Source: a bacterium (GTDB lineage: Bacteria > Patescibacteriota > Patescibacteriia > 2-01-FULL-39-33). From it: DNA of 64,000 bases. The translations under genes were made by a program, and so were the position numbers. A model generated the notes under the pieces. The model saw nothing but the letters and a program-made list of their open reading frames with translations, made no database searches and had not been told where the DNA came from. Positions 10,375-53,554 of this stretch are shown piece by piece; position 1 is the stretch's first letter, and each line of letters opens with the position of its first letter. The stretch spans positions 42,700 through 106,699 of the forward strand of contig JAKQDP010000070.1 in NCBI GenBank assembly GCA_029558735.1, read 5' to 3'.

Positions 10375-10383
10375 AAGTTAATT

Positions 10384-10412
10384 TTGACAATTTTAAACAG
10401 TTACGTTATTAT
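10384..10412 (+). promoter_or_regulatory. Candidate sigma70 promoter (TTGACA-17-TATTAT) that would produce a leaderless transcript
   Basis: TTGACA at 10384-10389, 17-nt spacer, TATTAT at 10407-10412. The ATG at 10419 lies where the TSS is expected. Confidence 0.3.
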
Positions 10413-10418
10413 TTTAAT

Positions 10419-10526
10419 ATGAAAAAATCCAATAAAAAAAATACCCTTAAAACAGTCTGGACGATTATTGTTTTACTGATGATATTTTCAATGGTCTTTT
10501 TCTCAATTATGCCGCTATTCTACTAA
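10419..10526 (+). CDS. Candidate leaderless small membrane peptide, 35 aa (MKKSNKKNTLKTVWTIIVLLMIFSMVFFSIMPLFY)
   Basis: Single TM after a basic N-terminus. A promoter lies immediately upstream and a plus-strand terminator follows. Confidence 0.25.
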   Translation: MKKSNKKNTLKTVWTIIVLLMIFSMVFFSIMPLFY

Positions 10527-10548
10527 TGGACAAATATCTGAAAATTGT

Positions 10549-10582
10549 TTTAATCCCGAAACTTCGGGATTATTTTTTTAAT
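10549..10582 (+). terminator. Intrinsic terminator, plus strand
   Basis: Perfect 9-bp hairpin aatcccgaa-ac-ttcgggatt followed by atttttttt. The T-run is on the plus strand only, and the hairpin overlaps the lepA stop on the other strand. Confidence 0.4.
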
Positions 10583-31524: not shown

Positions 31525-31553
31525 TTGACAAAATAAATTAGACGTGATATAAT
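31525..31553 (+). promoter_or_regulatory. Consensus sigma70 promoter (TTGACA-17-TATAAT), divergent from the RAYT gene
   Basis: TTGACA at 31525-31530, 17-nt spacer, TATAAT at 31548-31553. Confidence 0.55.
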
Positions 31554-31756
31554 TGTATGTTGGCCTGTCATAGTGATAGGCCTGAAACTGGGAGGAAAGG
31601 AATGTCCCAGTTTAAAGACTCCATTTAAGGGTGAAAAAAACTCCTGCCGGCATACGGGTCGCCGCGCTGGAGGGGAGAAAACGCTTTATTTGCCAACCGG
31701 ACGCGATTGGCAAAAAAAATAAAGCGTTACGGACTCGAAGTCAGCTGGCGAGTTTG

Positions 31757-31838
31757 CGCAAAGTAGCCGCCACTTAAGTGCCGACGAAAGCGTAACTTCG
31801 CAAAGTAGCCGCCACTAAGTGCCGGCGAAACCCGAGAG
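31757..31838. repeat. Tandem direct repeat, 2 x ~42 nt, each carrying the 10-bp palindrome CACTTAAGTG (second copy CACTAAGTG)
   Basis: cgcaaagtagccgccacttaagtgccgacgaaa repeated 42 nt apart. Confidence 0.55.
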
Positions 31839-31913
31839 GCGTTTGAGATGCCTCTGTCCAGCTGAAACGGGACCTGACCAGTCCCTATAAACCGACTCCC
31901 TCACCCGATAACC

Positions 31914-31952
31914 AGCCCCTTGCCCAAGCGAGATAAGCAAGGGGTTTTTTAT
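31914..31952 (+). terminator. Intrinsic terminator (plus strand only)
   Basis: Hairpin ccccttgc-ccaagcgagataa-gcaagggg followed by tttttt. No U-tract on the minus strand, so it does not serve uvrA. Confidence 0.6.
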
Positions 31953-50634: not shown

Positions 50635-50663
50635 TTGACAAAAAAATATAAATATGATATAAT
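50635..50663 (+). promoter_or_regulatory. Consensus sigma70 promoter with extended -10 (TTGACA-17-TGaTATAAT)
   Basis: TTGACA at 50635-50640; TGaTATAAT at 50655-50663. Confidence 0.55.
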
Positions 50664-50728: not shown

Positions 50729-50926
50729 ATGGCTAAATCAGAAGAGCAGAAGCAGAGGGAAGAGGAGAGGAAGTACAATGAAGGTTACGAGTCCGCCGTC
50801 AAAGATGGAGGCAGTATGAGTATCGGCGCCTCGATCATGGCTCCCATGTCTGACAGTTGGTGGAAGGGTCGCGAAGACGCCAAGCACGACATTCAGAAGG
50901 GAAAGGCGGAGCGCGGCGAGAAGTAA
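50729..50926 (+). CDS. Small charged hypothetical protein, 65 aa
   Basis: RBS AGGAG 8 nt upstream. Strong promoter ~65 nt upstream. A terminator follows. Confidence 0.5.
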   Translation: MAKSEEQKQREEERKYNEGYESAVKDGGSMSIGASIMAPMSDSWWKGREDAKHDIQKGKAERGEK

Positions 50927-50956: not shown

Positions 50957-50995
50957 GCGGCTTGGAAATTAATCCGAGCCGCTCTTTTAATTTAT
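50957..50995 (+). terminator. Intrinsic terminator after the 65-aa ORF
   Basis: gcggcttgg-aaattaat-ccgagccgc followed by tcttttaatttatttt. Confidence 0.45.
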
Positions 50996-52676: not shown

Positions 52677-53117
52677 TTACAACCACAGCAAGGTATTCCG
52701 CTCCGGCTTCATTTCCGCCAACGCGGTCGCAAACTTCCGCGACAGCTTCTGGTGACGCTCCAAATTATCCTCCAAAAATCTAACCAGCCGGGCCTGAATT
52801 GCCTGCCGAAACTCGGCGGCAGTTTGGCCGTTAAGCTGAATCTCCCAGACACAAACCGACGCCGCGCTCAAGGGCCGCGCGCCACAATTGACCGCCTGCA
52901 ACAAAAAAATTTTTTCCGCCGGCTTGATCACGCCAGCCCAAATACAGCCAAAATCCGGCAACTCCATCGTGGCAACTGTCCTAAGCAGGTCCCGATCAAC
53001 CGACTCGGCCAGCGGCTGAACGCTACCTTTGTCCCAATCAATTTTGTTCCCTTGCTCATCAAACAATTCAATCTTCATTAAATCGCCCTCCTTATCAAGT
53101 TTGGATCGAAAGAACAA
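52677..53117 (-). CDS. Hypothetical protein (146 aa; true start may be MKIELF)
   Basis: ORF only. Confidence 0.4.
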   Translation of the reverse strand: MFFRSKLDKEGDLMKIELFDEQGNKIDWDKGSVQPLAESVDRDLLRTVATMELPDFGCIWAGVIKPAEKIFLLQAVNCGARPLSAASVCVWEIQLNGQTAAEFRQAIQARLVRFLEDNLERHQKLSRKFATALAEMKPERNTLLWL

Positions 53118-53292
53118 AAAAACCAGACTGCCGTAGTGGAAGTCTGATTAGTGATTACCGCTTGATCTTTAACCGCTAAGCACAAATAAAACTTCCACCC
53201 CGAAATCCGAGTAGCAATAGTCCCAACAACAAGCCTAAATTTTGAGTGAAAGTATTCATATTGTCAGTATAAATTATTTTTCTTTGGCCGTC

Positions 53293-53331
53293 AATTAAAA
53301 AACCGCCGCGAGAATCTTTCCTCACGGCGGC
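53293..53331 (-). terminator. Intrinsic terminator
   Basis: 11-bp hairpin accgccgcgag-aatctttc-ctcacggcggc with tttttt on the minus strand, 8 nt after the stop of the 48-aa ORF. Confidence 0.6.
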
Positions 53332-53338
53332 AATGGTT

Positions 53339-53485
53339 CTAAAACTGACGAACGCCTTTGCTTGGCGTCAGTTTGTGGCGGGATTTATTTCCTCGCCGAG
53401 GCTTATTTCTAAGAAGGGGTTTTCCGGGGCTAACACCCAGACTCAATTTTTGAAAAATTCTATAAACAATCCCCTTTTTCTTCAT
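53339..53485 (-). CDS. Small basic protein, 48 aa (MKKKGIVYRIFQKLSLGVSPGKPLLRNKPRRGNKSRHKLTPSKGVRQF)
   Basis: Own consensus promoter, RBS AGGGAG 6 nt upstream of the ATG, and a strong terminator. Below the ORF-track cutoff. Confidence 0.45.
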   Translation of the reverse strand: MKKKGIVYRIFQKLSLGVSPGKPLLRNKPRRGNKSRHKLTPSKGVRQF

Positions 53486-53525
53486 TTTTTTCTCCCTTTG
53501 ATGATTTTTCTTACCCCTATCTATA

Positions 53526-53554
53526 ATTATAGCATATTTTCAACTTTTTGTCAA
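53526..53554 (-). promoter_or_regulatory. Consensus sigma70 promoter (TTGACA-17-TATAAT) on the minus strand
   Basis: Minus-strand TTGACA at 53549-53554 and TATAAT at 53526-53531. Confidence 0.55.

Follow-up and report, generated by a model that had tools for sequence, protein, structure and literature searches.

Does the short interval that follows murF in a bacterial genome carry a gene of its own and, if so, what kind of protein does it encode? The question is raised by a 64,000-nucleotide stretch of contig JAKQDP010000070.1 (hereafter the window), whose organism, judged from the relatives of its MurF protein, belongs to Candidatus Buchananbacteria, in the Patescibacteria or Candidate Phyla Radiation (CPR). 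On the minus strand, just after the division and cell wall (dcw) cluster, lies an open reading frame (ORF) of 48 codons, which the original prediction had described as the unannotated gene of a highly basic protein faintly resembling ribosomal protein bL28. The answer that we favour, with a confidence slightly better than even, is that this is a real, translated mini-protein gene, a positional ortholog of a family present in a clade of sister species, and not a ribosomal protein. On the best reading, the ORF is this genome's copy of the gene for a fast-evolving cationic mini-protein, one confined to a subclade of Candidatus Buchananbacteria and located in every case directly after murF, where the mraZ-rsmH-ftsL-ftsI-murF operon has its 3' end. 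The unit comprises the following elements, given in the direction of transcription.

53526 to 53554, minus strand: promoter P1, TTGACA-17-TATAAT with a TG extended -10 element, 12 of 12 positions matching the consensus.
53492 to 53497, minus strand: Shine-Dalgarno (SD) sequence AGGGAG, the GGAG core lying 6 nt 5' of the ATG.
53339 to 53485, minus strand: 48-codon ORF, by translation MKKKGIVYRIFQKLSLGVSPGKPLLRNKPRRGNKSRHKLTPSKGVRQF, with its ATG at 53485 and the TAG stop codon included.
53296 to 53331, minus strand: intrinsic terminator T1 (stem-loop 53331 to 53302), with a 13-pair stem, a 4-nt loop and a run of six T, from a terminator scan and RNA folding.
53266 to 53294, minus strand: promoter P2, TTGACG-17-TATACT, directly after T1, which starts a leucine-rich leader unit and bounds the mini-gene unit.

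The locus is thus a self-contained gene-like unit, with a promoter, an SD sequence, an ORF and a terminator, for a very basic product of 48 residues (pI 12.0, net charge +15). P1 lies 27 nt 3' of the murF stop codon. Perfect TTGACA-N17-TATAAT sites occur three times in the window and not once in 100 shuffled versions of it, and a site scan ranked P1 and T1 as the best promoter and the best terminator within the surrounding 8 kb. The promoter, the ribosome-binding site with its start codon and the translation of the ORF were found exactly as first described. The terminator is as strong as announced, with corrected dimensions: its stem has 13 pairs rather than 11 when G-U pairs are counted, on which the scan and the RNA fold agree, and it begins 7 rather than 8 nt past the stop codon. 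The placement after the dcw cluster also holds, since the genes that directly precede the unit on its strand are mraZ, rsmH (MraW), an FtsL-like gene, the penicillin-binding protein gene ftsI and murF. The terminator scan of the locus found none between murF and P1, so that T1 is the first terminator for transcripts of the mraZ-murF operon too. Finally, the ORF is indeed unannotated: no gene caller reported it in 16 public contigs that come from this organism and are nearly identical to the window, and the sole version ever called is a variant of 47 residues, P0001, from the Logan collection.

Evidence that such a unit encodes a protein comes from related species. Loci around MurF relatives were examined, 80 from genomes and 80 from metagenomes. 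A tblastn search of the 80 genome loci with the window peptide gave no significant match. A small basic ORF is present directly after murF in five sister species (L004, L007, L008, L009 and L086, the ORF products of L008 and L086 being P0003 and P0004). The MurF proteins of these species are 64-67% identical to that of the window and 77-85% identical among themselves, and thus form a tight clade with the window outside it. Their ORFs encode 35-53 residues with a net charge of +9 to +14, one to four Trp and no transmembrane segment; when the window peptide is included, lengths are 35-53 residues and charges +9 to +15 in all six species. A GGAG SD sequence stands 6-8 nt before the start codon in six of six, and the frame is open throughout. 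Just after the murF stop codon, a TTGACA element accompanied by a TG-extended -10 box is invariant at the same place in L004, L007, L008 and L009, while the L086 promoter matches the consensus at 12 of 12 positions, as in the window. In each of the five sisters the mini-ORF is followed by a hairpin and a T-run, and within the clade this terminator has undergone a compensatory change from CTTCCG/CGGAAG to CTCCCG/CGGGAG.

The sister peptides are homologous to one another, with Smith-Waterman scores of 46-105; L086, compared with the other sisters, reaches z=4.8-7.4 where shuffled controls average 22-25. They share the signature K[KR][IV]W..[IVF][LM].[KR][LM]SG followed by a Gly/Ser/Pro hinge, with SPG[RH] in three of them. 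The tail is missing from the peptides of three sister species, and the hydrophobic moment over 11 residues reaches 0.85. Among L004, L007, L008 and L009 (L086 was not included), the proportion of synonymous differences (pS, 0.44-0.94) exceeds that of nonsynonymous differences (pN, 0.25-0.46) in all six pairs, so that the sister family is protein-coding. A conserved serine is moreover encoded by AGC in L008 and by TCT in the others. The mini-ORF diverges much faster than MurF. Among the 127 distinct Patescibacteria loci surveyed that had sequence beyond murF, an SD-preceded ORF of 25-70 residues with a charge of at least +9 was found only in this Buchananbacteria set; the other candidates all had charges of +7 or below, and a terminator followed only one of them (charge +1).

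These comparisons bear on the possibility that P1 and T1 delimit a small RNA of about 220 nt, in which the open frame would be incidental. The codon usage of the window ORF is atypical, its peptide sequence is not conserved beyond the species, one of the two other perfect promoters in the window drives a structured RNA devoid of ORF (see below), and the whole P1-T1 transcript folds with z=-4.0. This folding signal is mostly due to the terminator, however; without it, z falls to -1.95 and the centroid structure is poorly defined. Rfam gave no match to the unit, neither at the gathering threshold over the window nor, chance-level matches to unrelated eukaryotic families aside (E of 5 or more), in a permissive scan of the region at E<=10. 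An RNA whose frame is accidental does not readily account for a GGAG sequence kept at 6-8 nt from an open frame in all six species despite extensive sequence turnover, for the excess of pS over pN and the switch from TCT to AGC in the sister clade, or for the fact that the conserved trait, a strong positive charge, is a property of the protein. A small RNA is therefore an unlikely explanation of the locus.

Does the window ORF belong to the sister family? It occupies the same slot, on the same strand after murF, in a syntenic region; it has the same set of promoter, SD sequence and terminator; and its product falls within 35-53 residues and a charge of at least +9. In the window peptide as in the sister peptides, a basic N-terminal stretch is followed by a predicted amphipathic helix and then by a Ser/Gly/Pro hinge. 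In L008, murF is followed by the mini-ORF, P2, the Leu-rich leader, leuA, cysS and dus; the window has the same succession except that an orphan ORF of 133 residues stands in the place of leuA. The DNA of the Leu leader aligns clearly between the window, L008 and L009, with a mean column identity of 76% in a four-row alignment that includes the near-identical contig L001. By position and architecture, the window ORF is quite probably orthologous to the mini-ORF of the sister clade.

Several observations weigh against this reading. The window peptide shows no statistically significant similarity to the sister family: shuffle tests gave p=0.12-0.35 against four members, 0.06 against L086 and 0.09 summed over the first four. 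With a profile built from four relatives, the window ORF was not among the top 28 of the 1829 stop-to-stop segments of the window, and with five relatives it ranked 38th of 1829 (E=11). It has neither the conserved Trp nor the SG motif of the family (K[KR][IV]W...[LM]SG), and the sequence of its terminator is unrelated to the CTTCCGAAACTTCGGAAG hairpin conserved in the clade. In L002, L003, L005, L006 and L010, the nearest five relatives that are not in the sister clade, no such unit follows murF, which means that it is dispensable or has been lost or gained repeatedly. An exhaustive HMMER search of 1.84 billion representative sequences returned no homolog beyond P0001, from the same species. 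The codon-usage log-odds of the ORF is -0.04 per codon, below that of 98.8% of fragments of real genes of the genome, and reaches only the 73rd percentile among mostly spurious small ORFs; this low score is explained in part by the extreme Lys/Arg content, which depresses and biases the measure. Of the five differences that separate L001 from the window over 1141 nt, three lie in the 147-nt ORF and all three change the protein. Lastly, the AlphaFold2 model of the peptide is of low confidence (predicted local distance difference test, pLDDT, 61.5), and the membrane-binding mechanism considered below is itself inferred.

Within the clade, L086 already has mini-ORF scores of no more than 46-61; with such a fast decay, undetectable similarity is what is expected of an ortholog at the distance of the window (64-67% MurF identity). 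Scans of genomes and metagenomes with MurF found no bridging relative between 75% and 99% identity. Weak echoes of the family can be discerned in the window peptide, namely the ungapped pattern K-x-I-x-x-[KR]-I-[LF]-x-[KR]-L-S followed by SPG[KR], the pattern KP..R...R.G..S common to the window peptide and L086, and the rank of 38th itself. An alignment of the window peptide to the sister family made by eye failed the leave-one-out profile and shuffle tests. Sequence homology is thus not claimed, and orthology rests on position and architecture. A word-indexed search of 5.8 billion proteins found P0001 as the only relative, and the searches of large protein collections yielded only members of the mini-ORF family that were already known. 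The exhaustive search also reported P0002 (727 residues, E=1.7e-4), a repeat protein that accumulates many weak matches of 18 residues and is not a homolog. Conservation in relatives, which had been proposed as a check, has a double outcome: the peptide sequence is conserved only within the species, and what a Buchananbacteria subclade as a whole retains is the slot, the expression signals and the cationic character.

Over 1141 nt, 15 more assemblies of the organism match the window at every position (100% identity) and so carry no polymorphism signal. Contig L001 has the same gene order and DNA about 99% identical to the window; its product P0001 is 94-96% identical to the window peptide, relative to which one codon is deleted in frame and two residues are replaced. 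At the DNA level, these are an in-frame 3-nt deletion with an adjacent change, plus a Ser to Asn substitution. This is a pattern of fast change with the frame preserved, compatible with relaxed constraint. A further assembly, L164, in which indels shift the frame of the ORF, was judged unreliable and disregarded: its coverage is 2x, murF and cysS are broken as well, and the indels lie mostly at homopolymers.

It could be argued that the ORF is neutral or decaying, either because its function was lost in the window lineage or because it arose de novo, and that it is expressed only since a strong promoter persists. Such an origin would agree with the failure against the family profile and the missing Trp and SG motif, with the absence of such a gene after murF in the closest relatives L002 and L003, with strain differences that are concentrated in the ORF and all protein-changing, and with the low codon score. 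On the other hand, the gene has kept its 12/12 promoter, SD sequence, start codon and 48-codon frame, 15 independent assemblies agree fully on its sequence, and the one variant that can be trusted, with its 3-nt deletion, remains in frame. The cationic character and the predicted amphipathic N-terminal helix are retained, and members of the clade that are clearly under constraint also diverge rapidly. We consider decay or neutrality unlikely, although it has the most appreciable chance among the alternatives to a translated, functional gene.

Could the peptide be a small ribosomal protein, as its composition had first suggested? Pfam and NCBIfam contain no match at E<=10 to the window peptide, nor to the peptides of any of the six species. 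This agrees with the initial statement that no family could be assigned, and the proposed search of hidden Markov models (HMMs) of small ribosomal protein families accordingly came out empty. A phmmer search of all PDB chains, among which bL28, bL32 to bL36, bS21 and bTHX are represented many times, did not find small ribosomal proteins; its best matches, to uL3 (E=0.13, residues 38-83) and uL2, are at chance level. A fragment or pseudogene of uL3 was considered and discarded, since the match goes no further than E=0.13, the Pfam family Ribosomal_L3 is unmatched and a PDB search with the mini-ORF family profile is empty at E<=10. As a test secondary to the HMM and PDB searches, Smith-Waterman scores were compared with those of 3000 composition-preserving shuffles, in 36 comparisons with uncorrected p values and hand-typed reference sequences. 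The window peptide compared with E. coli bL28 gave z=2.2 (p=0.037, uncorrected for the 36 tests). Four of the five sister-species peptides do not share this resemblance; for the fifth, L086, z=1.6. The tests with bL32, bL34, bL36, bS21 and bTHX all gave p>=0.069, weaker than bL28, and none of the ribosomal comparisons survives correction for 36 tests. A likeness to bTHX (RRG-KIW...G[KR]YRP) was rejected with z of 0.8 or less. In addition, the window ORF ends at 48 residues, right after the supposed bL28 motif, while bL28 has a fairly constant length of roughly 60-80 residues across bacteria and a folded domain behind the motif. The resemblance to L28 and other small ribosomal proteins thus does not stand.

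A divergent ribosomal protein, or a basic mini-protein associated with the ribosome or with RNA that compensates for ribosomal proteins missing in the CPR, would nevertheless fit the size, the pI of 12, the very strong promoter (like those of translation genes) and the faint likeness to the L28 core in the window and L086. CPR ribosomes show lineage-specific losses of bL28, uL29, bL32 and bL33, and bS21 is often absent in Parcubacteria (PMC9297842). These losses keep a ribosome-associated function conceivable, and nothing in the present analysis supports it. To the negative searches must be added that the unit is missing in the nearest relatives, that it does not lie in a ribosomal operon and that the tail is missing in three species. 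The peptide evolves too fast (much faster than MurF) and varies too much in length (35-53 residues) to resemble a ribosomal protein, and we regard this explanation as improbable.

The position of the terminator raises one more possibility, that the ORF is a cis-regulatory leader peptide (an upstream ORF) controlling read-through of T1 into the downstream genes. A ribosome terminating 7 nt before T1 would cover its 5' arm, and the adjacent unit really is a leader-peptide attenuator. However, a second, complete promoter follows the mini-ORF terminator in the window, L004, L008, L009 and L086 (TTGACA-17-TATATT in both L008 and L009), making the downstream genes independent of read-through. These genes vary from one species to another (cysS, or the Leu leader with leuA), and in L007 the next gene is convergent, which leaves nothing to regulate. 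Furthermore, the ORF has no run of a single regulatory codon, the fold shows no alternative antiterminator, and 35-53 codons with a conserved amphipathic core are unlike known leaders. Given P2, the variable downstream genes and the convergent neighbour in L007, the leader-peptide reading of the 48-residue ORF was rejected as very improbable.

If, as we favour, the unit is a gene orthologous to the sister mini-ORFs, how might it be expressed and act? The window ORF would have descended from the same ancestral gene as its sisters and diverged past statistical recognition. In the absence of a terminator between murF and P1, it should be transcribed from two sources, P1 and read-through from murF, which would make it the final cistron of the mraZ-murF operon; T1 would presumably end both transcripts. 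The window peptide has no Trp and contains the segments IFQK, LSLGVSPGKPLLR and GIVYR. AlphaFold2, run with a four-sequence alignment, yielded a low-confidence model with one helix at residues 5-15 and coil elsewhere. By inspection, the predicted helix would be amphipathic, I6, V7, I10, F11 and L14 being opposed to R9, Q12 and K13. The product may accordingly be pictured as a polybasic N-terminus leading into an amphipathic helix (residues about 5-16) and then, past a Gly/Ser/Pro hinge, a polybasic tail without ordered structure. The helix could lie on an anionic membrane surface, with the basic tail adding electrostatic grip; because of the operon context, the inner face of the membrane near the division machinery is the favoured place. 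The protein would then be a highly expressed peripheral mini-protein, located beside the peptidoglycan and division machinery, whose genes would be transcribed together with its own. This membrane-surface mode of action is put forward tentatively. Binding of RNA or of the ribosome through the basic tail, the main alternative mode, has a smaller chance. Somewhat less likely still, the product might be a highly expressed, signal-less cationic amphipathic peptide, resembling an antimicrobial peptide or an effector and tied to the end of the cell wall operon, that acts on the membrane of the cell's own division site or of the host cell to which the bacterium attaches. In an effector of this kind, rapid turnover would reflect an arms race and not neutrality, the bacterium being presumably an episymbiotic member of the CPR.

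The unit that begins at P2 deserves a description of its own. Its elements are the following.

53116 to 53294, minus strand: Leu leader-peptide attenuator unit, with orthologs at about 7559 to 7750 in L008 and 7497 to 7690 in L009.
53176 to 53259, minus strand: leader ORF of 27 residues, MNTFTQNLGLLLGLLLLGFRGGSFICA, with nine Leu, its ATG 6 nt after the -10 box of P2 (leaderless-like).
53116 to 53146, minus strand: attenuator terminator T2, CAGACTTCC...CAGTCTGG followed by seven T, the 5' arm repeating a motif that pairs with region 2.
52677 to 53078, minus strand: ORF of 133 residues in the place of leuA, with a good SD sequence and a GC content of 53%, versus 43% for the window.

Region 1 (AATACTTTCACTC) pairs with region 2 (GGTGGAAGTTTT, 53199 to 53188), and the T2 5' arm contains a motif, CTTCCACT, to which region 2 is complementary as well. 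The 1:2, 2:3 and 3:4 pairings are conserved, region 2 (GGTGGAAGT) having the start of the ORF and the 5' arm of T2 as alternative partners. Judged from its sequence, the unit is a classical leader-peptide attenuator, having a run of regulatory codons, alternative pairings and a downstream gene with no promoter in between. Rfam did not recognize this leader, and a search of the literature found no publication joining leader-peptide terms with CPR or Patescibacteria terms. In L008 and L009 the leader precedes leuA. At the window locus leuA is absent, and the leader now precedes the 133-residue orphan ORF and then cysS. This ORF has no Pfam match and only a sub-threshold match in NCBIfam; no other species was found to have it, and 76 indexed blocks of a public collection contain its exact sequence. 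The ORF resembles a replacement or insertion specific to the lineage, placed under a Leu attenuator that has been orphaned. The leuA-like gene of L008 (7788 to 9326, with an equivalent in L009) lies under the Leu attenuator and encodes 512 residues with an N-terminus of the 2-isopropylmalate synthase type; in both species cysS follows directly, and no other leu gene occurs within 6 kb downstream. A solitary leuA is unexpected in a CPR genome with little biosynthesis.

Further along the same region, the second perfect promoter of the window (50635 to 50663, plus strand) drives a highly charged ORF of 65 residues at 50729 to 50926 (MAKSEEQKQREEERKYNEGYES...), followed by a terminator at 50957 to 50982; in sister contigs this ORF is annotated as a protein without a Pfam domain. 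In some strains (contigs L166, L167, L173 and L175), a transposase of about 315 residues (HTH_32 / rve integrase-core) is inserted downstream of cysS, between the 65-residue ORF and dus. It is absent from the window and from the other strains, which indicates an insertion-sequence polymorphism within an otherwise clonal population. The third perfect promoter, also TG-extended (31525 to 31553, plus strand), leads into a GC-rich stretch of about 390 nt (31560 to 31951) that contains no ORF. Within this stretch a repeat, GCAAAGTAGCCGCCACT(T)AAGTGCCG, occurs; a strong terminator stands at 31916 to 31951, and the RNA folds with z=-6.7. Rfam gave no match to it at the gathering threshold or at E<=1, and ARAGORN found no transfer-messenger RNA; it is a candidate for an unclassified structured non-coding RNA.

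The segment of the window that best matched the mini-ORF profile, at 10377 to 10523 on the plus strand, turned out to be an unrelated membrane mini-ORF of 35 residues. At this place a stand-alone mini-gene (10384 to 10572, plus strand) lies between two minus-strand genes. It has a TTGACA-17-TATTAT promoter, with the ATG 6 nt after the -10 box, and is leaderless-like, without an SD sequence. The ORF, MKKSNKKNTLKTVWTIIVLLMIFSMVFFSIMPLFY (10419 to 10526), encodes a basic N-terminus and one transmembrane helix. Its terminator, TAATCCCGAAACTTCGGGATTA followed by seven T, has the same CCGAAACTTCGG core as the mini-ORF terminators of L004, L009 and L086.

The main value of these findings is in annotation. 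CPR genomes are small and thought to be tightly packed, yet they hold stand-alone mini-genes with textbook promoters and terminators that were skipped by every caller in 16 public assemblies. Since homology is already undetectable at 65% MurF identity, tracing such genes needs synteny and not sequence search. If the product is real, the end of a peptidoglycan and division operon gains a cationic mini-protein that is abundant and lineage-specific, and that becomes a candidate for proteomics, localization, and liposome- or ribosome-binding assays. The mini-gene is a modest annotation gap and not a surprise; its neighbours, a ribosome-stalling leucine attenuator of the CPR that has survived the replacement of leuA and the candidate structured RNA of about 390 nt, are arguably more interesting.

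How does the mini-protein compare with known systems? With the small ribosomal proteins bL28, bL32, bL34, bL36, bS21 and bTHX it shares a small size (26-78 residues), a pI above 10, extended Lys/Arg-rich segments and strong expression signals, and the tail of the window peptide, GN-KSRH-L---K--R-F, loosely resembles the N-terminal motif of bL28. It differs from them in being limited to one CPR subclade, in its variable length and in its location at the end of a dcw operon. A second comparison is with cationic amphipathic peptides that lack a leader, namely leaderless bacteriocins such as aureocin A53 and lacticin Q, and with cationic antimicrobial helices. The mini-ORF products are likewise peptides of 35-53 residues, Lys/Arg-rich and without a signal peptide, Trp-rich in the sister clade, with an amphipathic helix (hydrophobic moment up to 0.85), a strong promoter of their own and rapid sequence evolution. 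Unlike the bacteriocins, they come from a housekeeping operon, with no transporter, immunity or modification genes near the window locus, and the window peptide lacks Trp and has one short predicted helix instead of a compact multi-helix fold. A third comparison is with the small division and envelope proteins Blr of E. coli (41 residues), SidA of Caulobacter (29 residues) and MciZ of B. subtilis (40 residues). Of these, MciZ binds FtsZ, and Blr and SidA are hydrophobic peptides that cross the membrane once. The mini-ORF peptides have no transmembrane segment, carry a charge of +9 to +15 and are not known to resemble these three in sequence. Like them, they are a few tens of residues long, were missed by annotation and act, or are presumed to act, on the divisome and peptidoglycan machinery, a link that for the mini-ORF would lie in its co-transcription with ftsI and murF. 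A member of no named family, the product is best filed among the unannotated small proteins of bacteria.

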